The notes: a model not told the origin generated them from the letters alone. A stretch of 64,000 nt of DNA from Verrucomicrobiota bacterium (GCA_027624625.1 JAQBWH010000001.1:73946-137945), one strand, 5' to 3'; positions 21,775 through 49,343 are shown, numbered from the stretch's first letter. A program made the numbers and translations.

Positions 21775-22029
21775 TTAACAGTCCGCGCTTTCCAGCGCGG
21801 AATCAACGTGATCAGCGGCAACCTCCAGTTGCTCTTTCAGGTCGTGCAGGGCAGCCCAGGACTGTGCGATGTCCGGTCCCCATTCCCCCTCGAGCCCTTC
21901 GAGTTTGGCGTTGGGCGAGGGATGGCAGGCGAGGTTTTCCTCGATCAAGCACGCGATGGTCCGCAGGGCGGGTCCATGGTAGGGGAGGTGCAGTTCGAGA
22001 CGGTGCGAGACTTTCGTCGTCTGTGGCAT
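21775..22029 (-). CDS. Hypothetical small protein (84 aa)
   Basis: Internal ATG (MPQTTKVSHRLELHL...). Non-repetitive, acidic and helical-looking composition, in an otherwise empty gap. No family recognised. Confidence 0.3.
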   Translation of the reverse strand: MPQTTKVSHRLELHLPYHGPALRTIACLIEENLACHPSPNAKLEGLEGEWGPDIAQSWAALHDLKEQLEVAADHVDSALESADC

Positions 22030-22083
22030 AGGGGACAATCTTCCACCGAATCGGCAGCCGCGCAAGCCGCAGGACAAACTTTT

Positions 22084-22737
22084 TCAGCCTTCGGCCAGGG
22101 AGGCGAGGAGTTCGGGGGTGACCTCCGCAAGGCCGGGCACGGCTGCATTGGCTGCCCCGAGGGTGTCGAGCGGGTTGGTCGTGGCCACCGCCACGACCGG
22201 CATGCCGGCTCGCTGGGCGGCTTCGATGCCGACCAAGGCATCCTCGATGACGACACATTCGGCCGGGGCGAAACCAAGTTTTTCCGCGGCGAGGAGAAAG
22301 ATGGAGGGGTCCGGTTTGCCGTGCACGACGTCTTCGCCGGAAACGATCACGCGGAAAAAATCACGCAGGTTCATCAGGTCGAGGGGAAGATCCAGGTTGG
22401 CGCGTTCGGTCGACGATCCGATGGCGCAGGGGATCTCCCGGGCTCGGAGGGCCGCGAGGAGCTCGCGCACTCCGGGCAGCGGTTGCATGCCTTTTTCGCG
22501 CACGAGCGCGCGGTAGGTTTCTTCCTTTTCCCGGGCGAGCTCGGCCACTTCGCGGGGATCCCGGGTCCAACCGAGGTCGGGGATGATTACGTTGTTCTTC
22601 TTGCCGAAGCCACGCTTGAAGTGGTCGGGAGGAAGCGGGAGTCCGCGTCGAGCGGCGAGAATTTCCCAACTGCGCTCGTGGTGGCCCGAGGAGTCAACAA
22701 CGACCCCGTCCCAATCAAAGATGACGGCGGAGAGCAT
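22084..22737 (-). CDS. HAD-superfamily hydrolase (beta-phosphoglucomutase-like subfamily IA)
   Basis: Start [16 protein letters not shown] (DxDG motif I). GSS motif II. GKPDP and EDALVGIEAA motifs III/IV. Its ATG overlaps the ilvD stop by 1 nt. Confidence 0.85.
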   Translation of the reverse strand: MLSAVIFDWDGVVVDSSGHHERSWEILAARRGLPLPPDHFKRGFGKKNNVIIPDLGWTRDPREVAELAREKEETYRALVREKGMQPLPGVRELLAALRAREIPCAIGSSTERANLDLPLDLMNLRDFFRVIVSGEDVVHGKPDPSIFLLAAEKLGFAPAECVVIEDALVGIEAAQRAGMPVVAVATTNPLDTLGAANAAVPGLAEVTPELLASLAEG

Positions 22738-24446
22738 CAAAGCCCGGCATCGGTCACGGCCCCGGTCGAAGCGCTGGTGGCGCTGGCTGCGAATTTGGCC
22801 AGCACTCCGCGGCGGTAGCGCGGGGCGGGTTTTTTCCACTTGGCCTTGCGCCGTTTCATTTCGGCGGCCGGAATGTCGAGGGTGAGGCGGTGCTTGATCG
22901 CGTCGATTTCGATGGTGTCGCCGTTTTTGACCAAGGCAAGCGGCCCGCCATCGAAGGCTTCCGGAGTGATGTGGCCGACGACGAACCCGTGGGTGCCGCC
23001 GGAGAAACGTCCGTCGGTGACCAAGGCCACATCTTTGCCCAGGCCTTTGCCCATCACCGCGGAGGTGGGTCCGAGCATTTCGCGCATGCCGGGGCCGCCC
23101 TTGGGTCCCTCGTAGCGGATAACAATGACGTCACCCTTTTTCACCGAGCCTTTGAGGATGTTTTCGAGGGCGGCTTCTTCCGAGTCGAAGACCCGGGCTG
23201 TGCCGCGGAATTTTTCGCCTTCTTTGCCGGAAATTTTCGCCACGGCCCCGCCGGGTGCGAGGTTGCCGTAGAGGATGACGAGATGGCTGTCTTTCTTGAC
23301 CGGATCTTTGAGCGGCCGGATGACTTGCTGGCCTTTGGGGTAGGGTTGGAAAGGCGCGAGGTTCTGCTTGAGGGTCTTGCCGGTCACGGTGAGGCAGTCG
23401 CCGTGGAGCAGGCCGGCCGAGAGGAGTTGCTTCATGAGCGGAACGATGCCGCCGATGGCGACAAGTTCGGACATGAGATATTTGCCGCTTGGTTTGAGGT
23501 CGGCCAGCACCGGGACGCGGCGGCCGATCTTGGTGAAGTCGTCGATGTGCAATTTGACCTTGGCGGCGTGGGCCATGGCGAGGAGGTGGAGCACGGCATT
23601 GGTCGAACCGCCCAGCGCGATGATCAGGGTGATGGCATTTTCAAAGGACTCGCGGGTCAGAATGTCCGAGGGAACGATGCCCCGCTTGAGCAGGTTCACC
23701 ACCGCGGCGCCGGCGTCGCGCGCGTCGGTCTTCTTGTGCGCGGAGATGGCGACCTGCGCGGAGCTGTTGGGCAGGCTCATGCCCATGGCTTCGATCGCCG
23801 AGGCCATGGTGTTGGCCGTGTACATGCCGCCGCAAGATCCGGCGCCGGGAATGGCGCAGGATTCGATCTTCTGCAGTTGTTTGTCGTTGATCGTGCCGGC
23901 TGCGCGTTGGCCCACAGCCTCGAACACGGAGACCACGTCGAGGTTTTTGCCGTTGAGGCAGCCGGGAAGAATGGTGCCGCCGTAGACAAAGACCGCGGGG
24001 CGGTTGAGGCGGGAGATGGCCAGCATGCAGCCGGGCATGTTTTTATCGCATCCGCCGATGGCAACAAAGCCGTCGAAGCCTTCGCAACCGATGACCGTTT
24101 CGATCGAGTCGGCAATCACTTCGCGCGAGACGAGCGAGTATTTCATCCCCTCGGTCCCCATGGAAATGCCGTCCGAAATGGTGATGGTGTTGAAGATGGT
24201 GGCTTTGCCTCCGGCCGCGTTGGCCCCACCGGCAGCTTCGCGGGCGAGCACGTCGAGGTGCATGTTGCAAGGGGTGACCATGCTCCAGGTGGAGGCGATG
24301 GCTACCTGCGGCTTGGCGAAATCTTTGGCCTGGAACCCGACCGCATAGAGCATGGCGCGGCTCGGAGCGCGTTCGGGTCCGTCAAGGACCTGCGAGGAAT
24401 AACGGCGAAGGGGTGATTTGTTGATGCGGGCGGATTTTTTGCTCAC
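22737..24446 (-). CDS. ilvD: Dihydroxy-acid dehydratase
   Basis: 569 aa with ILVD/EDD signature regions ([21 protein letters not shown]-type segment [14 protein letters not shown]). Confidence 0.95.
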
Positions 24447-24493
24447 CCCGCGAAATTACATCGCGCCGGGCCGCGCGTTAAGCAGAAATCGGT

Positions 24494-26449
24494 TCAGCGT
24501 GCCCCGGGCGAGGAACGAATCAAGGCGATTTCCTCCTCGAGTTCGCTCCGTTGTTTCGCGCTCAAGCTCGGGGATTCCGCCGCGAGGCCCAGTTCCCGCA
24601 GGGCGGGGCGGGCCAGCCCTTGTTTGGCGTAGGATTGTCCGAGATAGAGCCGGTAAAATCCGGTGTCCCCGCCGCGCGCGGCGGTGAGGGCGACAAGGCG
24701 CTCGAGCAGTTCCGCTTCGGTCTGGAAGGCGCGGGCCGCATTGGCGGCGCGGGCGGCGAGCCACAGCGTGCCGGTGTCGCCGGGAGCCAAGGCGGCGGCT
24801 TTTTGCGCGGCGGCGTAGGCGTTGTCAGTCAGTCCGGCATGCAGGCATGCCTCGGCGCGCACCTCCCAGGCGAGGGGGAGCGACGGGTCGAGGTCCACGG
24901 CCCGCAAGCTTTCTGCCAGTGCGCCACGCACGTCGCCGAGCGAGACCAAGGTGCGGGCCCGGACCGCAGCCGCGGGCGCGGAGAGGTCTGAGTTGCGCAC
25001 CGCCGTTGCGGACAGTTCCCCCGACTCGGGAAGCGCGTTGGCGGCCAGCGCGGAGAGGGCGGCGTTGGCGAGGAAGGCGGAACGGTTGGCCCCGCCCCAC
25101 ATTTCGCGCGCCAGTTGTTGGGCCGGCTCGGTGGCGAATTCTGCGCCTTGCCGGGCACGGAGAAAAAGCACGCCCGCCGCATCTACGGCTGTCAATCGCC
25201 AGTCGGGAGATTCCCCGAGGTGGCGGGCGAGGGCTGCGTAGTCGGACTTCTCGCCGAGGAGCCAGACCGCGTCAAAGCGGGTTTGGCGGTCGCGGGCGCG
25301 CCAGAGGGAAGGTTCGCGTCCGAGCGGCTTTCCGTCGCCGGCATCGACCGAAGCGGGGAGCGGGCCGGCCAGGCGGGCCAAGGGCAAGCCACCCGGGTTG
25401 ATATAGACGAGCCCTTCAGCCGGGAGAGAAGGGCGGGTCAGTGTCGGTTGGATCGCGGCCGGGGTCATGGCCAAAGCATACCAGCGCGGCGCCGCCTCCA
25501 GCGCGGGGGACACGACGAGTCCGGCCACGGCAAGAATTACCGCGCCCTGCACCCACCAACGGAAAGCGAAACCGGTGTGCCGCCATTGGTCGACGGCCGC
25601 CGGCCAAGCGGGAATAAGCCAGAGGGCGAAGGGCCAGAGGAGAGCGGTTTGACCGAAGGCCGCAACGATCAGCAGCAAGGTAGGGGCAAGAACCGCGCCC
25701 TTGGAGTTGTGGCGCCACGCATCGGCTGCGGCGAAGGCGAGGATGGCGAGGGCGGCGAGCAGGGCGAGTACGGCGGCGGCGGAGAGTCCGCTTTGCGGGG
25801 ACCAGAGGAGAAAAATATTCGCTTCCGACCAGACACCAAGGCCTCGCGGGGTGAATTGTGTCGCGGCGAGGGCGAGGACGATGACGCCCGGAGCCCAACG
25901 ACGAGGCAGTCGAGACCAGCCATCGATGGTGAAAGCGGCGGCGAGGAGGAGTCCGCCGGGTGAGAGCCAGACCGAAAGCCACGCGGCGAGGGGGAGGCTG
26001 AGGGCGACGAGGAGCGGCGAGCGATGAAAAGTCGCTGTGCGCCAGAGAGACAAGAGCAGGACAGCGAGACCGAATCCGCTCCAACCGCTGGCTGGTCCCG
26101 AGAGGACCGCGGCAAGCAGAGCAGGGACCAGCGGGCCGAGTCCGCGCCAGGCCCGGCCGTGGAGTGGCCAAAACCATGCGAGCACGGCCAACCAGGCGAC
26201 GAAGACGTGGAGGTTTTGCCAGGCGCGCGGACCGGCCAAGGCAAAGGCGGTGGTGGCTGGCGCGGCCAAGAGGGTGAGTGGATTCCAGAACGAGGGACCG
26301 GAGAGCAGCCAGAGACCGGACTCTTCGGCCGCTGCGGCGCTGATCGCATCGGGGCCACGCAGGGCGATTAGCGCGCCGAGGACAAACAAGGCGCAAACGG
26401 CGAGGGCGACAAGGCGGCGCCAGTTGCTGCGGTTCTCCTGCTCGGCCAT
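24494..26449 (-). CDS. Polytopic membrane protein with C-terminal TPR repeats
   Basis: Start taken at MAEQENRSNW. About 10 hydrophobic segments are followed by TPR-like Ala-rich repeats (AWEVRAEACLHAGLTDNAYAAAQKAAALAP...). Confidence 0.7.
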   Translation of the reverse strand: MAEQENRSNWRRLVALAVCALFVLGALIALRGPDAISAAAAEESGLWLLSGPSFWNPLTLLAAPATTAFALAGPRAWQNLHVFVAWLAVLAWFWPLHGRAWRGLGPLVPALLAAVLSGPASGWSGFGLAVLLLSLWRTATFHRSPLLVALSLPLAAWLSVWLSPGGLLLAAAFTIDGWSRLPRRWAPGVIVLALAATQFTPRGLGVWSEANIFLLWSPQSGLSAAAVLALLAALAILAFAAADAWRHNSKGAVLAPTLLLIVAAFGQTALLWPFALWLIPAWPAAVDQWRHTGFAFRWWVQGAVILAVAGLVVSPALEAAPRWYALAMTPAAIQPTLTRPSLPAEGLVYINPGGLPLARLAGPLPASVDAGDGKPLGREPSLWRARDRQTRFDAVWLLGEKSDYAALARHLGESPDWRLTAVDAAGVLFLRARQGAEFATEPAQQLAREMWGGANRSAFLANAALSALAANALPESGELSATAVRNSDLSAPAAAVRARTLVSLGDVRGALAESLRAVDLDPSLPLAWEVRAEACLHAGLTDNAYAAAQKAAALAPGDTGTLWLAARAANAARAFQTEAELLERLVALTAARGGDTGFYRLYLGQSYAKQGLARPALRELGLAAESPSLSAKQRSELEEEIALIRSSPGAR

Positions 26450-26556
26450 CGGGTCTGGATCATTCGGACGGGGCGCGGGCTTGGCAAGGAGAAGCGGGTG
26501 GGTTGATCGGCCTTCGGTGCCTTGCATCACGCCACGGGCGCGATAAGTTCTCGTCC

Positions 26557-27087
26557 ATGCACGGTTATTCATTCACTTTGGTTCTCATGCTTTCATTTCT
26601 CGGCCTGACCCGCGAGGCGGACGCCTTGTCCGTGGGCGACGAGGCGCCGCGCGTCTCTTCACGTGACCAGAATGGCGCGGAAGTTCTGTTGGCGGACGTC
26701 TATAGCCGAGGCCCGACGCTCGTTTATTTTTATCCCAAGGCGGGAACGCCCGGTTGCACCGCGCAGGCCTGCTCCTTGCGCGATGCTTTTCCTGATTTTT
26801 CGGCCGATGGCATTCAAATTATCGGGGTGAGTGCGGATACGGTGGAGGCGCAAAAAAAATTCGCCGACGCGCAGCAGATCCCGTTCATTTTGTTGGCCGA
26901 CACGGACCTGTCGGTGACCAAGTCCTTCGGGGTCCCGACCATTCCCGTGCTCGGAGTGCCCAAGCGGCAGTCCTTTTTGGTCAAGGACGGCAAGATTGCT
27001 TGGATCGTGGAGAGTGCGAAGACCGGGGACCATGCCGCGGAAGTGCGGCAGGCGTTGCAGTCGCTTGGTACCGGGGAAAAATCTTGA
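26557..27087 (+). CDS. bcp: Secreted thiol peroxidase / peroxiredoxin, Bcp type
   Basis: Signal peptide (MHGYSFTLVLMLSFLGLTREADA), then the FYPKAGTPGCTAQAC peroxidatic-Cys motif. Confidence 0.85.
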   Translation: MHGYSFTLVLMLSFLGLTREADALSVGDEAPRVSSRDQNGAEVLLADVYSRGPTLVYFYPKAGTPGCTAQACSLRDAFPDFSADGIQIIGVSADTVEAQKKFADAQQIPFILLADTDLSVTKSFGVPTIPVLGVPKRQSFLVKDGKIAWIVESAKTGDHAAEVRQALQSLGTGEKS

Positions 27088-27128
27088 GCCTGCATCCGTG
27101 CGCGCTACAGTGCTCGTTCACCATGCGA

Positions 27129-27200
27129 GGGTTGGTAGCTCAATGGTAGAGCAGCGCCCTTTTAAGGCGTTGGTTGTGGGTTCGAGTCCCACCCGACCCA
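27129..27200 (+). tRNA. tRNA-Lys (anticodon TTT)
   Basis: Manual cloverleaf. Acceptor GGGTTGG/CCGACCC (one G-U pair), D-arm GCTC-AATGGTA-GAGC, anticodon stem GCGCC/GGCGT with loop CTTTTAA, T-arm GTGGG-TTCGAGT-CCCAC, discriminator A. 72 nt. Confidence 0.9.
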
Positions 27201-27347
27201 CTCGCTCTTCTGAACCTGTAAATCCTCGCGAACCGCCCGACTATTAGCTCCTCTGCTTCCAGCTTCCCTACTCATAGCAAGCTGGAGGTGGACGATTCCT
27301 AGCGGGTTTTAGGGCCCCATCCTCCCGCCTCTGGCAAGGGAGGCGTG

Positions 27348-28472
27348 TTACGGCTTCGCCTTAATCCGAATGAACGCTTTGCCAGGAGGTAGATTGCTTA
27401 AGGTCAAAGAGTGCGGGGCGTAAGTTGTCCAAGTCTGGAGATCTTCGCTCTTTTCAATGTCGTAGTTGAGGGTGAATGCTCCATTTGCATCTTTAGTAAG
27501 CACCAGTTCGCCTATCGCCATCGCTTGCATTTGGTTGGCCAGATAAAGCCCCACAACGGGAGAAACGGTTTCGGCAACATTAGGATTGGTCCCATAAGTA
27601 ATGCTTTCTTGGTAGTTAGTTAAACCATCCCCATCGTTATCCCCGACATCTTGAATGAAGTTGGCTCTTACAGCCTTATCGGTATCCATCGTCAATGTGA
27701 TCGAACTTGTTGTAGCTATGACGTCTCCGAACCAGTTACTAAACAAATAACCTGCATTCGGGGTAGCAGTTACTACAACGGATTCTCCAGCTTCATAAGT
27801 GTCTTTGTTAGGATCCGCTAATACAGTGCCTGTAGAGGTATCGCAGGTTGCTGTTAGCGTAGAAACAAAAATAACTTGCGACGCTGTTAGGCCAAAGGTT
27901 ATGTAAGTATCTGCGAAGCGGGTGGGCAGATAAACAGTCGCTAGGCTGGTGCAAGCAGTGAACGCATCACCCCCAATACTGATCACGCTGCTGGGGATAC
28001 TGATGCTGGTTAGGGAGTAGCATTCGACAAACGCTTGAACCCCAATACTGGTCACGTTGTTGGGGATGACCACGCCGGTTAGGGCGCTGCAACTACTGAA
28101 CGCCCAATCCCCAATACTGGTCACGCTTTCGGGCATGGTGATGCTGGCTAGGCTGGTGCAAGAAGTGAACGCATTTTGCCCAATTCTGGTCACGCTGTCG
28201 GGGATACTGATGCTGGTCACGGAGTTATTTTGTTTTCCATTGCCACTGCCAAAAATAGAAGGTTCATTGACCCCGCTGTCCAACCCCACCTGCTCCACCG
28301 AATACCCACCCAACACGCTTGGTATCGCCACCGCACCAGCTTCAGTTGAGGCTGTGATAGTCGCCACGCCATCCTCAACGATGTAAGTCCAATGCCCGTC
28401 GACTACTTCCTGCCCCATACTCCCCAGCGGGAATGCGGATAGAAGCAGAGCGGAGAGGACGAGCCTTTGCAT
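27348..28472 (-). CDS. Secreted BspA-type leucine-rich-repeat protein with an InlB-B-repeat-like segment and a calcium-binding DNDGDG motif
   Basis: Start MQRLVLSALLLSAFPLGSMG (signal peptide). About 5 tandem repeats of ~23 aa (IPxSVTSIGxxAFxxCxSLTSI). TATPNAGYLFSNWFGD. DNDGDGLTNYQE. GC is visibly lower than in the flanks. Confidence 0.8.
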   Translation of the reverse strand: MQRLVLSALLLSAFPLGSMGQEVVDGHWTYIVEDGVATITASTEAGAVAIPSVLGGYSVEQVGLDSGVNEPSIFGSGNGKQNNSVTSISIPDSVTRIGQNAFTSCTSLASITMPESVTSIGDWAFSSCSALTGVVIPNNVTSIGVQAFVECYSLTSISIPSSVISIGGDAFTACTSLATVYLPTRFADTYITFGLTASQVIFVSTLTATCDTSTGTVLADPNKDTYEAGESVVVTATPNAGYLFSNWFGDVIATTSSITLTMDTDKAVRANFIQDVGDNDGDGLTNYQESITYGTNPNVAETVSPVVGLYLANQMQAMAIGELVLTKDANGAFTLNYDIEKSEDLQTWTTYAPHSLTLSNLPPGKAFIRIKAKP

Positions 28473-28492
28473 ATAGTTATCTAAGCACCTCC

Positions 28493-28855
28493 GGGACCAA
28501 TGCGGGCACGGCGGTTTACGATAGCGCTGCCACGAATCCGGCCATAGTGGACATCGTTGGAGGCTTAAGCCCGTATGGAACGATGGGCCAAGGCGGCAAC
28601 GTGTTTGAGTGGAACGAGAGTGCTTTTGACGGGTCAAACAGCTCGTCGTCCGAGGGTCGCGCGATCCGCGGTGGCGGCTGGAGCGACGCCGAGGGCGAGT
28701 TGCGCTCCTCGGCCCGGAACTTCGGCGTCCCGTCGAGCGAGAGCTTCAACATCGGTTTTCGTGTCGCGAGTGTCCCTGAACCCTCGACCTACGTGCTGGT
28801 GTTGATGGGAGCAGGAGCGTTGTATCTTTGGAAGCGCCGGAAGAGTTCCCTTTGA
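28493..28855 (+). pseudogene. 3' fragment of a PEP-CTERM FGE-sulfatase-domain gene (paralogue of 9276..10247)
   Basis: The translation GGLSPYGTMGQGGNVFEWNE...IRGGGW...GFRVASVPEPSTYVLVLMGAGALYLWKRRK aligns to the last ~120 aa of 9276..10247. The N-terminal two-thirds are absent and the LRR gene start abuts at 28472. Confidence 0.65.
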
Positions 28856-29046
28856 TCTTTGGCCCTTTGCCCTTTTCCTGTGGTGAGGTGGAAAGCCCGC
28901 CACAGGCCAACCTCGCGCAAAGATTTCGCATCCTTACAGGTGGGCAAGGCAACCTTTGATTTCGTTAGTGGACCCGCAGGGAAGCATCGGTCTGTTTCGG
29001 GCACTTGCGTCTTGGGTCGGCGGCAGCCTTCCTGACGGGGGGAGGG

Positions 29047-29418
29047 CTAATGCTGCGCATCAAACCACTTCATTCGCAGTGCATGGACATGACGCCTTAC
29101 GGCTTGGTTGGCTTTGATTGTCGGCAGGAAGTCGGGGTCATGCGCGATCTGTGCTGGTAGCTCGGAGAGGTCGCTGTCGAGTTCCAAACAAGCCGCGGCG
29201 TCATTCATCGCCTTGAGGATGCGGCTGCCGTAGTTCGGCCCAACGAAGCACGAGGCCGGAGTCGGTTCACGCCGGCGGTCTGACTTGCTGCGGATGTTGC
29301 GGGCATACCAATCAAGCGCGGCCTCGGCTAACCTTCGCGGGCAACCTCGAGCGACATGGGTGGCCCCCATCTGGCGACTACACCCGAACGCATGGCCTAT
29401 TTGTTTACGCGTTAACAT
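29047..29418 (-). CDS. Hypothetical protein, possible N-terminal helix-turn-helix (phage small-terminase/Nu1-like flavour)
   Basis: 123 aa. The N-terminus MLTRKQIGHAFGCSRQMGATHVARGCP resembles HTH DNA-binding leaders of phage proteins. This is a weak assignment. Confidence 0.35.
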   Translation of the reverse strand: MLTRKQIGHAFGCSRQMGATHVARGCPRRLAEAALDWYARNIRSKSDRRREPTPASCFVGPNYGSRILKAMNDAAACLELDSDLSELPAQIAHDPDFLPTIKANQAVRRHVHALRMKWFDAQH

Positions 29419-29518
29419 CGACTAAAGGGCTTGGCGCGGCGGGTGAAGTATGCGGCCTTCAGTCCCGCCAGATTCCACAGAAGCAATGAACAAGCCCCTG
29501 ACCGTTCTGAACATGAGT

Positions 29519-29802
29519 ATGGAAACCCGGGGTCTCTGGTCGCCACTGGCTCTTTACGTGATCGGAGCAACCTTGGTCGTGCGCATCGCGAGTGTGCGTC
29601 TCTGCCTGACCAAGATAGTTCCAGATGCCAGAGTGGGCGCATTGATCCGTGCATGGTGCCCAAAGGGCTTGCCGCGGCCGTGCTCGCTTCTGCCGTAAAA
29701 ATAGCACCGAATTTTCCGATGGCCGCCGCCATCTCCAACCTTCTTTATACCATCCTTATCTACAGCATCCTTGGCACGGTGATCGCGATCCTCGCGGTCG
29801 AA
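29519..29802 (+). pseudogene. C-terminal fragment of a cation:proton antiporter (CPA1-like), frameshifted
   Basis: Two adjacent frames read LALYVIGATLVVRIASVRLCL...RVGALIRAW and then VPKGLAAAVLASAV...LLYTILIYSILGTVIAILAVE. This is typical of the last TM helices of Na+/H+ exchangers. There is no N-terminal part. Confidence 0.35.
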
Positions 29803-30018
29803 GCGACTGGGAGGCGGTCGGGTCCTCTCCGGATGGCTCTATCCATCCGCGAGAGGGCGCCTCTGACAAGGCGACTTGAGGCCTTCGGGCCTCAGTACGG
29901 TGTTTTTCCCGTCCGGCTTTTAGTCCGGAGAGGGCATTTGCCATCCGGAAAATTGCTGGCCCGATCTTGGACGACGATCTTGGATTCGGCGCGTTTTTAG
30001 ATTAGAAATTAGATTCCA

Positions 30019-31113
30019 ATGGAAGCAACCAATCGTCGCACCGCGCTTTACGAGCAGCAGAAGTCCGCGGGGGCGCGCTGCATCAATTTCGGAGGTTGGG
30101 AAATGCCCGTGCAATTCACCTCAATCATGGACGAACATCATGCTGTGCGCACAGCCTGCGGCGTCTTCGATATTTCGCACATGGGCGAGGTTTTTGTCTT
30201 GGGTCCGCAGGCTCTCGACTGGCTACAGGGGATGCTGGCCGGCGACCTCTCGAAGTGCCCGGCGGACGGTGCCCAATACACCTTTCTCCTCAACGAGCGC
30301 GGAGGCGTGATCGACGACCTCATTGTTTACCGCATTGCAGACGACAATTTCCTTCTTTTGGTCAATGCGGCGAAAATCGCAGAAGATGTTGCCTGGTTGC
30401 AGCGGCACGTGATCGACGGCGTGACCATTGACAACCGCAGCGACACGATGAGCGCGCTTGCCGTGCAAGGGCCGGATGCCCCCCGTATTTTTCGCGAAGT
30501 CTTCCAGTGTGAAATGCCGGTGCGAAACACCTTCGTGGCCATGGAAAAGTGCCGCGGCGCGGTCATCGCCGCCGGCACCGGCTACACCGGAGAGATCGGC
30601 TTCGAGCTTTTTTTCTCCAATGCCTTGGCCGGCGATGTCTGGGGTGCTGTCCTTCAGGCGGGGGCAAAACCCTGTGGCCTTGGTGCCCGCGACACATTGC
30701 GCCTCGAGATGTGTTACCCGCTCAACGGCTCTGACCTCTCGCCGGGTCGCACTCCGCTCGAAGCCGGACTCGGAATGTTTGTCGCCTTGGACAAGAGGGA
30801 ATTTATGGGCCGCGATGCTCTGCTTGCCCAGAAAGCGGCTGGTCTTACATCCAAGTTGGTCGGCCTGCGCATGACCGAAAAGAGTCCCCCGCCCCGTGCC
30901 CACTATCCGGTGCTGGTTGATGGTCAGGTGGTCGGTGAGACAACCAGCGGCGTGCTCTCCCCCAGCCTTAATGAGGGCATTGCCATGGCTTACTTGCCGC
31001 TGGAGTTGGCTAAGCCCGGCCAGATCGTCCAGATTGATATTCGTGGCCGCTGGTTTGCTGCCGTTGTTGCCAAGAAGCCCTTTTATCGTCCATCCTCGCC
31101 GCGCCCAGCGTAA
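30019..31113 (+). CDS. gcvT: Glycine cleavage system aminomethyltransferase (T protein)
   Basis: 364 aa. RRTALYEQQKSAGARCINFGGWEMPVQF and FDISHMG are hallmark GcvT segments. Followed by gcvH and gcvP. Confidence 0.95.
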   Translation: MEATNRRTALYEQQKSAGARCINFGGWEMPVQFTSIMDEHHAVRTACGVFDISHMGEVFVLGPQALDWLQGMLAGDLSKCPADGAQYTFLLNERGGVIDDLIVYRIADDNFLLLVNAAKIAEDVAWLQRHVIDGVTIDNRSDTMSALAVQGPDAPRIFREVFQCEMPVRNTFVAMEKCRGAVIAAGTGYTGEIGFELFFSNALAGDVWGAVLQAGAKPCGLGARDTLRLEMCYPLNGSDLSPGRTPLEAGLGMFVALDKREFMGRDALLAQKAAGLTSKLVGLRMTEKSPPPRAHYPVLVDGQVVGETTSGVLSPSLNEGIAMAYLPLELAKPGQIVQIDIRGRWFAAVVAKKPFYRPSSPRPA

Positions 31114-31134
31114 TATTAGTCGCCGATCAGAACC

Positions 31135-31512
31135 ATGAACGTCCCTCAAGATTTGAAGTATGCCGAAACCCACGAGTGGATCCGCGTCGAAGGCGACACC
31201 GGAGTGGTGGGCATCACCGATCACGCCCAAAACGAACTGACCGACATCGTTTATGTCGACCCACCGAAATTAGGGGCCACCGTCACTGCCGGGCAGGCCG
31301 CCGCGGTGGTCGAGTCCGTCAAAGCCGCCAGCGACATTTATTCGCCGGTTGATGGCGAAGTCATTGAGCTCAACGATTCCCTTTCTTCGCAACCGGCCTT
31401 GGTTAATACCTCACCTTACGACAGCGGCTGGCTCTACAAGGTCCGCCTGACCAATCCGTTGCAGCTCGAGGCGCTCAAATCTCCCGACGACTACCGCGCA
31501 CAAATTGGCTGA
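31135..31512 (+). CDS. gcvH: Glycine cleavage system H protein (lipoyl carrier)
   Basis: 125 aa. YAETHEWI and the lipoyl-lysine motif VESVKAASD. Confidence 0.95.
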
Positions 31513-31522
31513 CCGCCAAATC

Positions 31523-34348
31523 ATGAGTACAGCCGCCGCACCGCAGTCCCCTTTTGTCCGTCGTCACGTTGGTCCCAACGACGCGGAAATTGCCCACATG
31601 CTCGCAGCGGTCGGTTACCCGAGCCTCGACTCCTTGATCGACGCGACCGTCCCGGAAGTCATCCGCCGCCGCGAACCGCTCAACCTGCCGCCCGCGCTCG
31701 ACGAGCCCGCTGCGCTCGAGGAAATTCGCGGCCTCGCCTCGCAAAACAAGCTCCAGCCCTGCTACCTGGGGATGGGCTACCACAATTGTCATGTGCCGCC
31801 GGTCATCCTGCGAAACGTTCTGGAGAACCCGGGTTGGTATACGGCCTACACACCTTACCAAGCCGAACTCGCCCAGGGCCGCCTCGAGGCCCTGCTCAAT
31901 TTCCAGACTATGGTGGCCGACCTCACCGGCATGGAAATCTCCAATGCCTCGCTGCTCGATGAGTCGACCGCCGCCGCTGAGGCCATGGCCATGGCCCACG
32001 GGGTCAAGGGGGCGGGCGACAAGTTTTTTGTCGCGGACAATGTTCACCCGCAAACCATCTCCCTCCTGCAGACGCGCGCGGAACCGCTTGGTCTCAGCAT
32101 CGTCTCTGGTCCGTGGACCGACGCCCCGCTCGATGCCTCCTACTTCGGGGCGCTCGTCCAGTACCCCGGAACAGACGGCAAAATCGACGACTACGGCGAC
32201 CTTGCCGCCCGCATCCACGCCGCCGGCGGAACCTTTGTCGTGGCGACCGATCTTCTCGCCCTCACCTTGCTCAAGCCACCCGGGGATTTCGGCGCAGACA
32301 TCGTGGTCGGCAGCGCTCAACGCTTCGGTGTCCCGCTCGGCTACGGCGGCCCCCACGCCGCCTTTCTGGCAACCAAGGATGACCACAAGCGCCGGCTTCC
32401 GGGACGCCTCATCGGGCTCTCCAAAGATGCGGCAGGTAACCCGGCCCTGCGTCTCTCCCTGCAAACCCGCGAACAACACATCCGCCGCGACAAGGCGACG
32501 AGTAACATTTGCACCGCTCAGGTGCTGCTCGCTGTCATGGCATCGATGTACGCGGTTTATCACGGGCCCGAGGGGCTCAAAGCCATCGCGCAACGCATTC
32601 ACGACACCACGGCAACCCTCGCGGAGATTTTGCAACGGGCGGGACACACCGTGCATCACGAGAAGTTTTTCGACACTTTGCGGGTGACACCACGCGCTGC
32701 GCTCGACGTGGCAAAAGCCGGGCTCCTTTTCCGCGAATTTTCCGACGGCTCGCTCGGAATTGCCCTCGATGAAACCACTGATTTGGCCGCCCTCCAACGC
32801 ATCCTCGAAGTTTTTCGATGCCCGCGCGCGGTGGACATCCAGGCGCACGACTTTGCCCCGGCCATTGCCCGCACTTCTTCTTTTCTGACCCACCCGGTTT
32901 TCAATTCCTATCACACGGAAACACGGATGATGCGTTACCTGCGACGGTTGGAGGGACGCGATCTCGCGCTCAACCACAGCATGATTCCGCTCGGTTCGTG
33001 CACCATGAAGCTCAATGCCGCGGCGGAAATGATCCCGGTTACCTGGCCGGAATTCGGCAACTTGCATCCTTTCGCCCCGGTCGACCAAGCCAAGGGCTAT
33101 GGCAAACTCTTTCGTCAGCTCGATGCGTGGCTCGCTGAAATCACCGGCTTTGCCGCCGTCTCCCTGCAACCCAACGCCGGGTCCCAAGGCGAGTATACCG
33201 GACTGCTGGTCATTCGCGCCTACCACCTCTCGCGCGGTGACACCGAGCGCAATATTTGTCTCATTCCCACCTCGGCCCACGGCACCAATCCGGCCAGCGC
33301 GGTCATGGCCGGCATGACGGTTGTCCCCGTGGCCTGCGACGCGCTCGGCAACGTCGATGTCGCGGATCTTGGTCAAAAAATCAAACTGCACGGAGCCAAA
33401 CTCTCCGCGCTCATGGTGACCTATCCGTCGACCCACGGCGTCTTTGAGGAAAGCATTGGCGACATTTGCCATATGGTGCACGCCGCCGGCGGGCAGGTCT
33501 ACATGGACGGTGCCAATCTCAACGCCCAAGTTGCTCTCTGCCGTCCCGGAGATATCGGGGCGGACGTTTGCCATCTCAATTTGCACAAAACGTTCTGCAT
33601 TCCTCACGGAGGGGGCGGACCCGGGATGGGACCGATCGGTGTGGTCGCCCACCTTGCTCCTTTCCTGCCGGGGCACAGCATCATCAAGACCGGCGGAACC
33701 CAAGCGATTGGTGAGGTCTCCCAAGCCCCTTGGGGTAGTGCAAGTATTTTGCCGATCTCCTGGATGTATATCCGCATGATGGGCGCACCCGGGTTGGAGC
33801 ACGCTACCAAGGTGGCCATCCTCAACGCCAACTACATGGCGCAGCGCCTCGACCCCCATTTCCCCGTTCTTTACAAAGGCAAAAACGGGCGGGTGGCCCA
33901 CGAATGCATTCTCGATCTGCGCGAGTGGAAGCAACGTGCGGGCATCGAAGTCGAGGACGTGGCCAAGCGCCTCATGGACTACGGCTTCCACGCGCCCACC
34001 ATGAGTTGGCCCGTTGTCGGCACGTTGATGATCGAGCCGACCGAGAGTGAGTCGTTGGAAGAAATCGATCGCTTTTGCGATGCCATGATTGCCCTGCACG
34101 GAGAACTCGTCGCGGTGGAGGAAGGCCGCCTCGACAAGGCTGATAACCCTTTAAAAAACGCGCCGCACACCGCGGAATGTGTCATGGCCGATGAATGGCC
34201 TCATGCCTACTCACGCGAAGTCGCCGCCTTCCCGCTCCCCTGGCTGCGTGGGAACAAGTTCTGGCCGTCCGTCCGCCGGGTCGACAATGTCTACGGCGAC
34301 CGCAATCTTTTCTGCACCTGCGCGCCGGTCGAAGAAGTCGCCGCCTGA
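31523..34348 (+). CDS. gcvP: Glycine dehydrogenase (decarboxylating), single-chain P protein
   Basis: About 941 aa from the ATG at 31523 (the ORF-track start at 31505 is a TTG). Typical GcvP segments: [20 protein letters not shown], and [16 protein letters not shown] carrying the PLP lysine. Confidence 0.95.
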
Positions 34349-34405
34349 CCAGACATTTTGGCCCGCGACTCGATTGCGCTTTCCCCGCCCCGCTGGCCGC
34401 GCACT

Positions 34406-35515
34406 CTAACGCGTCTCCGGCGCTTGTAATCCCACCAGCCCACCCCCGTATCCCGTCATTTCCAAATAGCCGCGCGCCAAGATTGCTTGGGCGCCCCGCG
34501 TGCCCGTCGCCCGCACACTGCCCTCCCAATACGAAATCGGACGCAGCACCAACTCTTGGTCGTCGACCGCCGCCTTCACCGTGACTTCCAGGTCCTGCTT
34601 GGGGATGCGAATTTTCCATTCTATGGGATAGTTTCCCCCCGTTGCGCTGCTCCGCCACGTCCTCCCCGCCAAAAGCTCAAAGTCCTCGTTTTTCACCGCC
34701 GTACTCACGCCCAGGGCATCAATCCACGTCCCGTGTGAAAACGGATCGCGCCCTCCATCCTTCAGCCGGATTTGGAAAAGCATCAGCTCCGTGCCGTCCT
34801 CGAATTGCAAACTCAACCAGTCCCAACCCGTCTGGTTTTCCGTCAGTTGGTTGGTCGCCCACTCTTGATCGAACCATGACCAGCCAGTCACCGCCACCGC
34901 CCGGCCGTCGATCATCAGGCGCCCGGCCGTCTCCAGGCGGGTCAAGGAATAATAGTGCGAAGCTCGTCCCGCACCCTCGGACTTCTGACTCACCCCGTTC
35001 TCGCCGTGAAAAATCGGCGGCTTCTGCGGGGTAAGGCTGAGCTCCAAAGCAAAGGCGGCATCTCTCGCTTGCAAAAGAAATCCGCCGCCGTCCCGCAGAC
35101 GCAACTCCCAATCGTCAATCCATGCCACGCGGTCGCCCTCGCTAAAGCCCGCTTCGCCGAACGCCCCCCGGGAGACCTTTTGCCCATAATGGAAACGTTT
35201 GCCGGAAATCTCCGTCACCGCGAAGTGGGCCAGCTTGATCTCACCGACCGCAAAGCGCGTCTCTGCTTCGGTCTTTCGTTGTATGCCCTGACGGAAAAAC
35301 GTCAGCTGATACCCGTACTCCCGCTTATCGTCTCCGGTCAAATTCCCGGTGAAATACCACCACTCGGTTTTGAAGTCGGGGTGCGCATGGTGGTCCCTCG
35401 GAAACTCGTATGGCCAACCCGGCAGGGCCACAGCCCACTCGTCAGCAACCGCTTTCGGCGAGACAAACCCGGCTAACCCCGCGAGGAGAAGACTGCTAAT
35501 AAAGGAACGATTCAT
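34406..35515 (-). CDS. Secreted AttH/CrtC-like lipocalin-domain protein
   Basis: Start MNRSFISSLLLAGLAGFVSPKAVA (signal peptide). HPDFKTEWWYFTGNL is the characteristic AttH/hydroxyneurosporene-synthase N-terminal motif. Its start lies 20 nt inside the upstream gene. Confidence 0.7.
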   Translation of the reverse strand: MNRSFISSLLLAGLAGFVSPKAVADEWAVALPGWPYEFPRDHHAHPDFKTEWWYFTGNLTGDDKREYGYQLTFFRQGIQRKTEAETRFAVGEIKLAHFAVTEISGKRFHYGQKVSRGAFGEAGFSEGDRVAWIDDWELRLRDGGGFLLQARDAAFALELSLTPQKPPIFHGENGVSQKSEGAGRASHYYSLTRLETAGRLMIDGRAVAVTGWSWFDQEWATNQLTENQTGWDWLSLQFEDGTELMLFQIRLKDGGRDPFSHGTWIDALGVSTAVKNEDFELLAGRTWRSSATGGNYPIEWKIRIPKQDLEVTVKAAVDDQELVLRPISYWEGSVRATGTRGAQAILARGYLEMTGYGGGLVGLQAPETR

Positions 35516-36338
35516 TCGGTGCCTCGACCTGTTCGATTTTTTCCAGTTCCAGACTCGGCTCCATGGTTCCACCTTTGTCCTCGAAACGCGCCACCCCGGT
35601 GATCCTGACCCATCCCATCCGGGGGACCTCCACCGGCTCACCTACGACCTTGATCCCCAGCGGCCGAGCATCGGCGGCACAGCAAACAACAAACATGCGG
35701 ACCAGATCGAATCCACCCTTTTTCTCCCCCCGAGGTGGTATATACTGCCCGACAATCGAGACCCGTTGGTTTTCGAATTCTTCCCGCAAAGCTGGTTCCT
35801 GTGCGGCGAAGAGTAAATCGAGGGTCTCCACTTGGATCGCTCCATCCGGAGTGCGAGTGAAATATTCCACCCCTTCCTCTTGGTTCTCGGGCCACGATCC
35901 ATCCTCCCGGGCGACATTCTCGTCCCACGCCGGCGCATCCTGCCACGAGGCAGGGGTCCTTTGGGCAGAGGGCAGTTGCGTGATATCGGTGACCATTCCC
36001 CGGTTCATGACCATAGCCTCGCCGAATTGACCCGGGGAAATAAATGCCGCCACGGTCATCGGCAGCAAGAGAACAACAAAAGCAATGGCTGCACCCGCTG
36101 TCAGCCGGCTTCGCGGCTCGTCCGTGGCGGGAACATATCCACAGTCCTGGCAGACTGCGTCGGTCTCTTGCGTAGCCCACCACCAGAGAGCAGCCAGTGC
36201 GAGCAACCCCAACCCGGCTGCCGTGACATATTCGTGGAATTGCGGATGGAGATAGGAGGCAATGCGGCCGCTCAGACAAAAGTAGAGCAAGGTGGCGCCC
36301 CAGAGGAGCAGAGTGACCAGGGTGAGGAGACGTTTCAT
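35496..36338 (-). CDS. TIGR03943/DUF1980-like membrane protein (partner subunit of the DUF318 permease)
   Basis: Start MKRLLTLVTLLLWGATLLYF. Two to three N-terminal TM segments, then a soluble C-terminal domain ending VCCAADARPLGIKV. Lies 2 nt downstream of the permease gene. Family assignment rests on architecture and context. Confidence 0.6.
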   Translation of the reverse strand: MKRLLTLVTLLLWGATLLYFCLSGRIASYLHPQFHEYVTAAGLGLLALAALWWWATQETDAVCQDCGYVPATDEPRSRLTAGAAIAFVVLLLPMTVAAFISPGQFGEAMVMNRGMVTDITQLPSAQRTPASWQDAPAWDENVAREDGSWPENQEEGVEYFTRTPDGAIQVETLDLLFAAQEPALREEFENQRVSIVGQYIPPRGEKKGGFDLVRMFVVCCAADARPLGIKVVGEPVEVPRMGWVRITGVARFEDKGGTMEPSLELEKIEQVEAPNESFLY

Positions 36339-39500: not shown

Positions 39501-40670
39501 TCACTCTGCCTTGGCCGCCGCCAGCGGCTGCGCCTTCAGCGTGATATCCTCCGGCGTGAAATCATTCTGCAGCGCAATAACCCGCATGCCGGGTTGGTCG
39601 AAGTCAATCGCCTTGAGGTCGACTGATTGAATGACCAAGCCATTGTAGGTCCGGACGTAAGTCTTCAGGTTCGTCCGGTCATGCGACACTGCCCACTCGG
39701 TGGTGTCGGTATTGACCAGTTTGGGCTTGCCGCCCGCGGAGAGAAACCCCTTGGTGTTGGCCGTCTGGTCGGCCGTGTTGGTCTGGATGGCACCGTTGAA
39801 GATGTCGAAGGTGTTGAGGATATGGAAACCGAGATTGACCGTCTCCTCGGCCGTGTCGCCCGGGGTGGCCCAATGCGAAAAGAGCGAGGCCCGAATGAAG
39901 CGCGAGGGCGGCGAGAGGTCGCCGGGCAGACCGATGGCACCGGAGCCCTGGCCGTAGTTCACCGCCGTAAATTGACCGAGCTTGCGCTCCAGCACGTTGA
40001 CCGGCGATAGGTCGACGTAGTTGCTCACGTTGATCTCCTGCCAATCGTAAGGCGGCGAATTGGTCAGGGTGCCGAGTGGGGCATCATGGATGTTGAGCCG
40101 GCCATCGATGTATTCAGCAATAACCACCTTGCCGCTGGCATCGCCGATCCACCAATGGACGGGTAGCACTTCCTTGAAGGGCACGAACTCCTGCTGCGCG
40201 ACATAGACATCGTTTTTCAGCGCGGCCACGGCTTCCTCCACCGTGGCACAATTGGCCAGCAGGTAGTTCGGCACCTCCCAGCTGGCGAGCGTCTTGTCGG
40301 CCGGGGCTGTGTCGGCTGCCTGGAATTCGGCATAGCCCGGCAGGTAGAGCATGCCGATGGCCAGCCCTTTCTCGTTTTGTCCATCGGCCACCACAGTGGG
40401 CAGGACATCGACATTCAGGCCAACGTAGCCGTATTTGGTCGTCCACTTCTTGCCAAGTTGCCCGACCGGGGCCGTGCCGGTGTATTCCGTACCCCGCGGA
40501 ACGATGAGCATCTTTGAGTTAAACGGATACCCAAACTCCATGGAGCGAAAATAAATTTGCGCTCCGTCGTTGGATTTGAGTTGGAAGGCCGTGCAGGCCG
40601 ATGCGGGATTGTGAATGCTCAGTGCCACGAGGGCAACCAAGCCAGCCAAGGAAGTCCGGAATCTTTGCAT
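39501..40670 (-). CDS. Secreted choloylglycine-hydrolase-family (linear amide C-N hydrolase, Ntn) protein, paralogue A
   Basis: The signal peptide ends ..NPASA|CTAF, so Cys becomes residue 1 (Ntn nucleophile). FRSMEFG (Arg/Asp pair), LTNSPPYDW (Asn), LPGDLSPPSRFIR. Confidence 0.85.
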   Translation of the reverse strand: MQRFRTSLAGLVALVALSIHNPASACTAFQLKSNDGAQIYFRSMEFGYPFNSKMLIVPRGTEYTGTAPVGQLGKKWTTKYGYVGLNVDVLPTVVADGQNEKGLAIGMLYLPGYAEFQAADTAPADKTLASWEVPNYLLANCATVEEAVAALKNDVYVAQQEFVPFKEVLPVHWWIGDASGKVVIAEYIDGRLNIHDAPLGTLTNSPPYDWQEINVSNYVDLSPVNVLERKLGQFTAVNYGQGSGAIGLPGDLSPPSRFIRASLFSHWATPGDTAEETVNLGFHILNTFDIFNGAIQTNTADQTANTKGFLSAGGKPKLVNTDTTEWAVSHDRTNLKTYVRTYNGLVIQSVDLKAIDFDQPGMRVIALQNDFTPEDITLKAQPLAAAKAE

Positions 40671-40756
40671 AATGCACAATTTTCCATGCCACGTCCGCGA
40701 GGAACAAGGCTAAATCTCTCTGTGCGCCACGGGCCCCAACCGGGGACGTCCGCCGC

Positions 40757-41923
40757 CTACTGCGCTTCGGCCGCGGCGAGCGGTTGCGACTTCGACGAGA
40801 TGTCCTGAGGCGCAAATTCGTTCTGCAGCTCGATGGTCCGTAAGCCCGGTTGTCCGAAGTCGATGGTTTTGTGATCGATCTTCTGGATGAGCGAGCCGCC
40901 GTAAGTCCGGATGTAGGATATCAAGTTCGTGCGGTCATGCGCCACGGCCCACTCGGTGATGTCGCTGTTGACCACCTTGGGTTTTCCCGAGGCGGATAGG
41001 GTTTTGGTCTCCGTCGTTCCATCAGCCTGCTTGCTTTGAATCGCGCCGTTGAAGATGTCGAACGAGTTCAGGACGTGGAAACCGACATTGACCGTCTCCG
41101 ACGCGGTATCGGCTGGAGTAGCCCAGTGCGAGTAAAGCGCCACCCGGACAAAACGGGATGGAGGCGTCATGTCGCCCGGCAGCCCGACTGCACCCGAACC
41201 TTGGCCGTAATTGATCGAAGTAAAATCACCCAGCTTTCGCTCTGCCCTATTGACCGGCGAAAGGTCGACATAATTGCTCACGTTGACTTGCTGCCACTCG
41301 TAGGGTGGCGAGTTGGTGAGGACACCGAGCGGAGCGTCGTGGATAGCCAATTTGCCGTCGACATATTCGGCAATGATCACCTTGCCGCTGGCGTCACCAA
41401 CCCACCAATGGAAGGGCATGACCATTTCGAAGCCCGCAAACTCCTGCTGGGCCACGTAGACGTCGTTGCGCAAAGCCGACGCCGCCTCCTCGACCGTGGC
41501 GCAGCTGGCCAGCAGGTAATTGGCCACCTCCCAACTGCCGATCGTCTTGTCCTGCGGTGCGCTCTCAGCCGGCAAGTATTCGGAAAAGCCCGGTAAATAA
41601 AGCACACCGACCACGAGCCCCTTCTCGTTCATTCCGTCAGCTACGGTGGAAGGCTCTTGTTCAACGTTCATTCCGACATAGCCGTGCTGCACGGCCCATT
41701 TTTTTCCGGCCCTCCCGCCTGGTGCGGTACCGGTGTATTCGGTGCCGCGCGGCACGATAAGAGCTTTTGAATCGAGCGCCTCGCCGAACTCCATCGAGCG
41801 CACATAAATCTGTGCACCGTCATTCGATTTAAGCTGGAAAGCCGTGCAAGCCAAGGCGGGATGGGAAACGCTCAGTGCCAAAACGGCGACCAAGCCAGTC
41901 AGGAGGGTCCGGAAATTTTCCAT
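40757..41923 (-). CDS. Secreted choloylglycine-hydrolase-family protein, paralogue B
   Basis: ..HPALA|CTAF. Closely similar to paralogue A along its whole length (VRSMEFG, LTNSPPYEW, LPGDMTPPSRFVR). Confidence 0.85.
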   Translation of the reverse strand: MENFRTLLTGLVAVLALSVSHPALACTAFQLKSNDGAQIYVRSMEFGEALDSKALIVPRGTEYTGTAPGGRAGKKWAVQHGYVGMNVEQEPSTVADGMNEKGLVVGVLYLPGFSEYLPAESAPQDKTIGSWEVANYLLASCATVEEAASALRNDVYVAQQEFAGFEMVMPFHWWVGDASGKVIIAEYVDGKLAIHDAPLGVLTNSPPYEWQQVNVSNYVDLSPVNRAERKLGDFTSINYGQGSGAVGLPGDMTPPSRFVRVALYSHWATPADTASETVNVGFHVLNSFDIFNGAIQSKQADGTTETKTLSASGKPKVVNSDITEWAVAHDRTNLISYIRTYGGSLIQKIDHKTIDFGQPGLRTIELQNEFAPQDISSKSQPLAAAEAQ

Positions 41924-42036
41924 AAGCGAGAATTTTCGGCACCGGATGCCGTCAGGACAAGGCAATATCCACGCAAAGCCGCGGGCACCTTTACGGCTTC
42001 AGGCTGCTCGTTGCGTTCTGTTTGCCAGCCGCCCAG

Positions 42037-43146: not shown

Positions 43147-43193
43147 TGAGGTATGTGTAGTGGGTCCGAAATAAGCGGAAAAAACGCCGTTGT

Positions 43194-46829: not shown

Positions 46830-47020
46830 CCGGTGTTCATGTGCACGGATACCTTCGATGGTGGCACTGAAGTGCCGGTGAGCTGGCAGCAAGCCTACGC
46901 CGAAAAAGTGACAGAACTTGGCGGCAGCATCGAAGTCAAAGAATACCCGAAGGACGACCATTTCTCCCTGCCGTACAGCTGCGCCCCCGACGTGCGCGAA
47001 TGGTTGAACAGGCTGTTCAG
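46818..47020 (+). pseudogene. Possible 3' fragment of an alpha/beta-hydrolase (S9/dienelactone-hydrolase-like) gene
   Basis: PVFMCTDTFDGGTEVPVSWQQAYAEKVTELGGSIEVKEYPKDDHFSLPY...VREWLNRLF resembles the C-terminal Asp/His region of such hydrolases. Nothing upstream matches an N-terminal part. Confidence 0.35.
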
Positions 47021-49169: not shown

Positions 49170-49343
49170 AACAGTCATAAGGTTAATCCCCCCCTCCAGC
49201 TCTACAAGTCCCCTCTTTCACGATCATCGGCGAAGCAGCCGATGAGGCCGCCCAGTGTAGGGTCGATCCGGCGACCACGGTCGGCCAGAGTGACGAAGCC
49301 CAATACCAAGGCGATGACGGCTGGCACAAAGAGCGTGACGCCG

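Follow-up and report, generated by a model that had tools for sequence, protein, structure and literature searches.

By the definition of the Islander paper (PMC4383910), a tDNA island is recognized by a regenerated target tRNA gene together with a displaced fragment of that gene. Here, we analyze a locus that shares DNA with such an element, namely the patch at positions 27207–30033 of a 64-kb window from a freshwater Chthoniobacterales (Verrucomicrobiota) metagenome-assembled genome (MAG). The window is a stretch of 64,000 nucleotides (nt) of a metagenome-assembled contig (GCA_027624625.1 JAQBWH010000001.1:73946-137945), and coordinates without a contig label refer to it. The patch lies between a tRNA-Lys gene and the gcvTHP operon and contains a gene for a leucine-rich repeat (LRR) surface protein of the BspA type, the 3' remnant of an FGE-sulfatase gene with a PEP-CTERM signal, a small open reading frame (ORF) termed orf123, and a fragment of a Na+/H+ antiporter gene. 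To our knowledge, almost no mobile elements have been described from Chthoniobacterales. PEP-CTERM proteins, the substrates of exosortases, were reportedly described by Haft et al. in 2006. BspA-type LRR proteins are a family of patchy distribution that has spread laterally. The family, of which BspA of Tannerella forsythia is an example, is named in two reports (PMC2843621, PMC3925233).

Taking homology, composition and the state of the locus in related genomes together, we consider it likely that 27207–30033 is a non-functional mosaic junction, which would have arisen at a hypervariable locus through a number of independent events, each an illegitimate recombination or a deletion, and which is neither one element nor an active system. 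As a tDNA island that has decayed at a recombination hot spot, the feature is of a known kind and represents ordinary genome plasticity, here resolvable with unusual clarity. As is typical of islands that have decayed or become anchored, and of cryptic prophage remnants, it has lost its recombination module, contains truncated and frameshifted genes, varies between strains and coincides with a synteny breakpoint. Unlike these, it combines debris of three or more unrelated origins (an element relic, an antiporter gene and a probably imported LRR gene), and orf123 appears to be still under selection.

The junction between the tRNA-Lys and gcvT blocks

On the left of the patch, a conserved block consists of ilvD, a TPR protein gene, a peroxiredoxin gene and, as its final feature, tRNA-Lys(UUU) (27129–27201, plus strand; ARAGORN anticodon ttt, Rfam tRNA 75.8 bits). 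As left-flank relatives we used contigs with the peroxiredoxin neighbor, termed L081, L082 and L083 (96%, 89% and 78% amino acid (aa) identity, respectively). Their DNA matches the left flank of the window at 93%, 84% and 71% identity, and the alignments end at 27206, 27205 and 27202, 1–5 nt beyond the 3' end of tRNA-Lys. Past this gene the DNA differs among all three relatives, with cstA in L082, a PhdYeFM/PIN pair and secretion genes in L083, and unrelated DNA in L081. tRNA-Lys is thus an exact synteny breakpoint and a variable hot spot, whether or not site-specific integration is the cause. In the 71%-identical relative L083, the PhdYeFM antitoxin/PIN toxin pair (L083 2621–3294) opens the DNA directly 3' of tRNA-Lys, another sign that this flank gathers accessory genes in the clade.

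On the right, blastn against 11 relatives (L001–L010 and L022) placed the start of homology at 30034–30046, i.e., at gcvT codon 5–6, from where it continues through gcvTHP and beyond. The genomes nearest to that of the window show 80–85% GcvT identity. In none of the relatives examined are the left and right blocks neighbors, and the patch is therefore the junction of two normally separate blocks. It spans 27207–30033, with its right end at about 30033 inside gcvT codons 1–5. Gene order at the locus is kept in no relative and the GC deviation is significant (see below), so that neither outcome which the initial annotation of this DNA had named as refuting its reading was seen.

The last part of the patch (29867–30033, plus strand) is a replacement gcvT leader together with the first four to five codons of the gene (MEATN). 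Both blastn and alignment show homology to relatives only from ~30030–30034, and the leader and the MEATN start are unrelated to those of all 11 relatives. An Rfam scan detected no glycine riboswitch or other family upstream of gcvT, tRNA being the only family found, and promoter and terminator scans yielded nothing above shuffled expectation.

A tRNA-Arg(ACG) element and its relic

Five relatives (L001, L002, L005, L006 and L008) show an empty site next to gcvT, in which tRNA-Arg(acg) ends 15–35 nt 5' of the gene. An upstream block with an MFS-transporter gene and tRNA-Arg is common to L002, L005, L006, L008 and a further relative, L009 (MAG M30B17), in which it stops at the tRNA-Arg 3' end. 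Here, 3.53 kb are inserted before gcvT at the tRNA-Arg site. An exact 45-nt direct repeat (L009 6393–6437 and 9925–9969, spacing 3532 nt) covers the tRNA from the anticodon loop to its 3' end, and its distal copy is followed by the same native sequence as the tRNA in the empty sites. The inserted genes encode a choice-of-anchor-R PEP-CTERM protein, a 122-aa protein (orf122) and a 412-aa tyrosine integrase (L009 8606–9844; Pfam Phage_integrase 8e-10, PHROG 1 at 2e-21) for which no relative was found in IMG/VR. Comprising an integrase, a tRNA target, a regenerated tRNA, a displaced 45-nt 3' fragment and an empty site, the L009 element has, as far as its sequence tells, every hallmark of a complete-looking tDNA island. 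It departs from such islands in being very small, with 3–4 genes in its 3.53 kb, and in carrying a PEP-CTERM surface protein as cargo, and it ranks among the smallest tDNA islands.

With the interior of this element the window shares DNA of 72–89% identity, in a block at 28772–29492 (no strand assigned) that comprises the PEP-CTERM motif, a 3' untranslated region (UTR) and orf123 with a 74-nt leader. According to blastn, 28772–28934 corresponds to L009 7232–7395 at 81% identity (from the PEP-CTERM motif onward plus the 3' UTR), 28949–29013 to L009 7489–7553 at 89%, and 29153–29492 to L009 8111–8453 at 72% (orf123 and its leader). The homology starts exactly at the PEP-CTERM motif; past 29492, L009 runs into its integrase and the window into the antiporter fragment. 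Unlike the L009 island, the window copy is devoid of integrase, attachment (att) copies and target tRNA and is a fossil. A tblastn search of the whole window with the L009 integrase gave a best E-value of 3.4, no ORF in 27207–30033 is long enough to encode it, and neither tRNA-Arg itself nor a second copy of its 3' end is present in the window.

Since the counterpart in L009 sits at tRNA-Arg(ACG), the relic belongs to a tRNA-Arg element and not to tRNA-Lys. The initial annotation had interpreted the patch as the eroded remnant of one or more elements integrated at tRNA-Lys. Its first half is borne out by the homology of 28772–29492 to an integrase-bearing element, and its second half, the integration site, is not supported. 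The searches it had proposed for a repeat of the tRNA-Lys 3' end and for integrase remnants found neither, including when 3–4 mismatches to the repeat were allowed across the 64 kb. An empty site, which it had also suggested to look for, exists at tRNA-Arg|gcvT in the five relatives, and tRNA-Lys has no common empty state.

Within the relic, orf123 (29047–29418, minus strand) is an intact gene for a small protein with an N-terminal helix-turn-helix (HTH)-like segment, as judged from homology to L009 orf122 (64% aa identity), which accompanies the integrase in that element. The initial description of a 123-aa ORF with a phage-Nu1-like HTH is correct as to the ORF, and the HTH is reached indirectly: residues 1–54 of L009 orf122 weakly match PHROG 57 (terminase small subunit N-terminus, HTH) at 6e-5, and orf123 itself has no match in PHROGs better than E 0.1 and none in Pfam or NCBIfam. 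A single-sequence AlphaFold2 model of orf123 reached a predicted local distance difference test score of 63.8, with the HTH region below 50, and Foldseek against the PDB returned only unrelated helical bundles at E > 4. The ratio of nonsynonymous to synonymous substitution (dN/dS) relative to L009 orf122 is 0.17, suggesting that orf123 is still under purifying selection, and the protein is identical in four population contigs. It may act as a recombination directionality (excision) factor or as a regulator. The family is very rare: in a metagenome scan, the only finds were L101, from the population of the window itself, and L102, a 71% relative that has no integrase beside it, and IMG/VR contained no relatives of orf123.

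Antiporter homology begins at ~29498, right after the L009 homology ends at 29492. An exhaustive phmmer (HMMER) search connected 29498–29866 (plus strand) to P0260, a 432-aa protein with a Na_H_Exchanger Pfam match of 1.2e-36, and identified the segment as a relic of the Na+/H+ exchanger family that comprises the last ~120 codons of a ~430-aa gene. The frame-corrected relic aligns with P0260 residues 311–428 at 47% identity (E 7e-25). With frameshifts at ~29650 and ~29803, it occupies three frames and terminates at the stop codon 29864–29866, in keeping with the frameshifted C-terminal piece originally proposed. On its own the relic stays below the Pfam threshold (PF00999, E 0.15, 11.3 bits vs. 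26.2), the window relic has no full-length PF00999 transmembrane domain in one frame, and when the frame-corrected peptide was used in a word-indexed protein search, nothing but self-like ORFs came up.

The stretch from orf123 over the antiporter relic to gcvT recurs at an identity of at least 99% in nine contigs from several assemblies. One strain variant, P0259 (29800–29866), is free of the second frameshift and reads to the native C-terminus (…AVERLGGGRVLSGWLYPSARGRL), which shows that the pseudogene decays differently among strains. Contig L093 is 99% identical downstream, and left of 29596, a position within the antiporter relic, its first 219 nt (L093 1–219) are unrelated; the divergence is either a second strain-specific junction or the mark of a chimeric contig. 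From the contig sequences, these population variants suggest that the locus is still changing.

The LRR gene and the truncated FGE-sulfatase gene

At 27348–28492 on the minus strand (coding sequence 27348–28472, 374 aa), Pfam matches and homologues identify an intact gene for a BspA-type LRR surface protein, as the initial annotation had stated. The protein matches LRR_5 at 4e-31 (PF13306; 107.9 bits vs. a cut-off of 27.7), Flg_new_2 at 8.5e-13 and TSP3_bac at 1e-5. It is laid out as a signal peptide, four LRR units of 69 nt each, an InlB-B-like domain, a TSP3 repeat and a conserved C-terminal domain, and the ORF aligns end to end with homologues of 364–411 aa. The segment carries its own 20-nt leader with a GGAGGTG box, and the gene is presumably expressed. 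LRR_5 repeats, an N-terminal signal peptide and a predicted extracellular location are shared with BspA-type proteins in general. The combination of LRR_5 with InlB-B-like (Flg_new_2), TSP3 and a conserved C-terminal domain of ~70 aa sets it apart from them, as does the pairing of the LRR gene with an FGE-sulfatase/PEP-CTERM gene in the apparent source lineage.

The GC drop that the initial annotation had noted behind tRNA-Lys is real. In 400-nt windows, GC amounts to 0.58–0.72 upstream of the trough, falls to 0.458–0.460 at 27400–27999 and regains ~0.61 by 28400; of 64 one-kb bins, 27001–28000 is the lowest with 0.514, all remaining bins having at least 0.570. The recommended check of sliding-window GC and codon usage singles out the LRR gene as an outlier on three counts. 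Its GC is 0.502, compared to 0.616 ± 0.024 (minimum 0.562) in same-size windows elsewhere (z = −4.7), its strand-symmetrised tetranucleotide distance is 0.562 vs. 0.285 ± 0.033 (z = +8.4), and its GC at third codon positions (GC3) is 0.533 vs. 0.66–0.80 in eight neighboring genes. To the right of 28493, composition is native, with GC at 0.57–0.61. The low-GC stretch is thus the LRR gene itself, whose limits give the exact extent of the region first described, and not the whole patch. Next to the gcv operon of another lineage, the Spartobacteria MAG L066, a 1225-aa LRR_5 gene (L066 9092–12769; GC 0.454, GC3 0.414) lies directly 3' of gcvP and likewise is a compositional outlier, making L066 the second lineage with this arrangement.

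The top homologues of the LRR gene, on contigs L084–88 and L092, reach 58–68% protein and 75–78% DNA identity. These contigs are of freshwater origin with 48–50% GC, and their genes share the GC3 of the window LRR gene. DNA homology to these donor-type genes extends from the stop codon to 20 nt 5' of the ATG, ending at 28492, and these limits indicate that the imported piece was one ORF with its leader, joined by illegitimate recombination. The junction 28492|28493 is sharp, with the LRR leader followed by FGE coding sequence and an overlap of 0–3 nt. The LRR protein (MDA1202772.1, encoded on a 165-kb contig) is the sole member of its 90%-identity cluster among ~15 billion proteins; by contrast, the 96%-identical cluster of the neighboring peroxiredoxin has 256 members. 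When the exact products of the LRR gene and the FGE fragment were looked up in an index without the window's own contig, no other contig was hit. Judged from these sequence comparisons, the LRR gene is probably a separate and recent import from a freshwater lineage of ~50% GC.

Between tRNA-Lys and the LRR stop codon lies an orphan spacer, S1 (27207–27347, 141 nt, no strand assigned), with a native-like GC of 0.58 and no match in any fetched locus. It contains two short hairpins, one with arms at 27249–27265/27279–27295, and a CCTCCC...GGGAGG stem is located 3' of the LRR stop on the minus strand. An integron-cassette origin of the LRR piece was considered; by eye, a long imperfect palindrome of the attC type with a GTTRRRY core is not apparent in S1, which shows the two hairpins. 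As the source of the head-to-head layout, an inversion inside an LRR-to-FGE module was rejected: the two parts lie 19 GC3 points apart, no FGE N-terminus is encoded behind the LRR stop (in any minus-strand frame of S1), and no single inversion gives this layout.

Across the junction, the FGE-sulfatase PEP-CTERM gene survives as a 3' remnant of ~120 codons (28493–28855, plus strand), cut at 28492|28493. From 28493, the plus strand reads as FGE codons (G-T-N-A-G-T-A-V-Y) that align with a paralogue in the window (359 aa, 9168–10247, 55% aa identity); identity to the FGE genes of L084 and L092 is 44–49%. The initial assignment as the 3' piece of a PEP-CTERM FGE paralogue thus stands, the remnant covering profile positions 151–254 of 255, or the last ~40% of the domain. 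The junction falls at codon ~21 of the listed ORF 28433–28855, and the SGT of the window corresponds to residues 204–206 of the 310-aa L084 FGE protein and 237–239 of the paralogue. Composition is native (GC 0.611, GC3 0.725). As in PEP-CTERM substrates generally, the fragment ends in a canonical VPEPS...hydrophobic...RRK signal, which scores above the Pfam and TIGRFAM cut-offs (PF07589, 29.6 bits vs. 20.7; TIGR02595, 26.3 bits vs. 16). Unlike such substrates, it starts only after the equivalent of ~230 residues of the paralogue (~200 of the L084 protein) and has neither N-terminus nor signal peptide; it therefore cannot be exported and is a pseudogene.

LRR_5/Flg_new_2 and FGE-sulfatase/PEP-CTERM genes occur as tight, often tandem modules (L084 2494–6334, L092 288–2528, L103 3441–10079), which were seen in the source-like freshwater contigs of ~48–50% GC (L084–88, L092 and L103). 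In these, a near-identical spacer of 9–12 nt (TAG GGG[GA]GTTT..ATG) separates the LRR stop from the FGE start, and in tandem modules the next LRR gene overlaps the preceding PEP-CTERM stop by 1 nt. By gene content and spacing, the modules look like an uncharacterised surface-protein operon family. In the window's own population, four contigs from different assemblies end at 28749–28783, where the PEP-CTERM motif and L009 homology start, which is 260–290 nt beyond the LRR junction. Left of 28749, L094 (1–12) and L101 (1879–1890), from two assemblies, share a different 12-nt sequence (GCGAGCACAACG) that still encodes an FGE-like C-terminus.

Weighing the explanations

The preferred mosaic junction resolves into four layers. 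One is the relic of a small tyrosine-integrase element that keeps a cargo tail, the 3' UTR and orf123; having lost the integrase, both att copies and tRNA-Arg, the relic can no longer excise. Another, the 3' quarter of a Na+/H+ antiporter gene, stands in the integrase's place and is still gaining frameshifts. Import of the LRR gene would have deleted the 5' 60% of the FGE gene together with all DNA as far as today's tRNA-Lys flank, and gcvT would have received a different leader and different initial codons. Direct observations are where the segments begin and end, what they are homologous to, how they are composed, and which sites are empty or occupied in relatives; the order of the events is our reconstruction from them, as is an ancestor of this strain with a complete element.

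Another history is conceivable, although we hold it to be unlikely. The patch could be a broken and recombined LRR/FGE module that was swappable cargo on the mini tRNA-Arg element, with the PEP-CTERM tail and 3' UTR serving as a recombination handle for surface-protein “heads”, and the adjacency of the LRR and FGE genes would then not be accidental. Such a module would fit the different heads found in the window (FGE-sulfatase) and in L009 (choice-of-anchor R), the third allele in population contigs, which diverges exactly at the motif, and the four assemblies that break there. If this were true, an exosortase-anchored FGE-like protein would partner secreted BspA-like adhesins in a surface system.

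The patch might also be a single genomic island that integrated site-specifically at tRNA-Lys and decayed later: it opens 1–5 nt past the 3' end of this gene, each of the three relatives differs there, and tRNA genes are the usual targets of tyrosine integrases according to the Islander paper (PMC4383910). We regard this history as very unlikely given the absence of a tRNA-Lys 3'-end direct repeat and of an integrase remnant in the 64 kb, the fact that recognizable mobile-element homology is confined to one part, whose counterpart element uses tRNA-Arg(ACG) by gcvT as its att site, and the mixed composition of the patch, with the LRR gene at 0.50 and the rest at 0.57–0.61. Little credence is likewise given to an old, vertically inherited arrangement in which low GC would be intrinsic to LRR_5 genes with their S/T/N/I-rich repeats. 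It draws on the L066 LRR_5 gene, which lies 13 GC points and ~23 GC3 points under its neighbors, and on the LRR genes of L084, which lie 3–8 GC points under theirs. Vertical descent is, however, difficult to combine with the 93%-identical relative L081, which differs after tRNA-Lys, with the single-member 90% cluster of the LRR protein, with the truncation of the adjoining FGE gene, and with the 75–78% DNA identity, including the 20-nt leader, that ties the LRR gene to ~50% GC contigs of equal GC3.

Finally, the LRR segment would be an assembly or binning artefact if a piece of a co-occurring ~50% GC organism had been joined to the contig. In favor of this, the segment resembles in composition the contigs that carry its homologues, the LRR protein has no second sequence at 90% identity despite the abundant sampling of the flanks, and four population contigs from four assemblies end nearby at 28749–28783. 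De Bruijn assemblers join sequences only via shared k-mers. Both junctions, however, coincide with gene edges without a shared repeat (0–3 nt overlap at 28492|28493), spacer S1 does not come from the low-GC lineage, and the breaks in the population contigs are at the PEP-CTERM motif, 260–290 nt away from the LRR junction on its right side, which together make an artefact highly improbable.

Several observations weigh against the mosaic junction as we reconstruct it. Former site-specific integration at this locus is deduced from the sister genome alone, as the window holds no att scar, and the view is limited to 64 kb, with any present copy of tRNA-Arg(ACG) lying outside it. The cargo heads are unrelated between the window (FGE-sulfatase) and L009 (choice-of-anchor R). 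The synonymous divergence (dS) between orf123 and orf122 (~1.8, saturated) exceeds that of gcvT (0.98), so that the elements in the window and in L009 may be independent acquisitions and a single inherited copy is uncertain. The L066 LRR_5 gene, in another Chthoniobacterales MAG, is also low in GC3 (0.41 vs. 0.63–0.67 in neighbors), which suggests that low GC is partly a family trait and makes it weaker evidence of recent import than it appears. Lastly, the junctions are read from the sequence of a metagenome-assembled contig.

Elsewhere in the window, a TPR/membrane-protein gene (692 aa, 24494–26572, minus strand) reaches a GC of 0.67–0.72 and an AT skew of +0.34 to +0.52 at 25200–26400, this skew being the strongest within the scanned range 22000–36000. 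Five paralogues of one family, 25–78% identical to an L002 gene, are found at 39636–40679, 40904–41932, 42172–43152, 46465–46862 (a fragment) and 48033–49301; the fragment reflects a partial duplication, in which 46481–46832 corresponds to ~48046–48400.

New are the very small tRNA-Arg(ACG) element with PEP-CTERM cargo in freshwater Chthoniobacterales, the finding that the tRNA gene beside the relic differs from the one which the element targeted, and the conserved LRR_5-to-FGE-sulfatase/PEP-CTERM module with its 9–12-nt spacer in the source-like contigs. An apparent island at tRNA-Lys can be the relic of an element for a different tRNA that was moved there by later rearrangement, which calls for caution with island callers based on tRNA adjacency and GC. 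The LRR_5/FGE-PEP-CTERM module of uncultured freshwater bacteria may merit a study of its own, and the intact, probably imported LRR gene of adhesin type is a candidate for a strain-specific surface trait.

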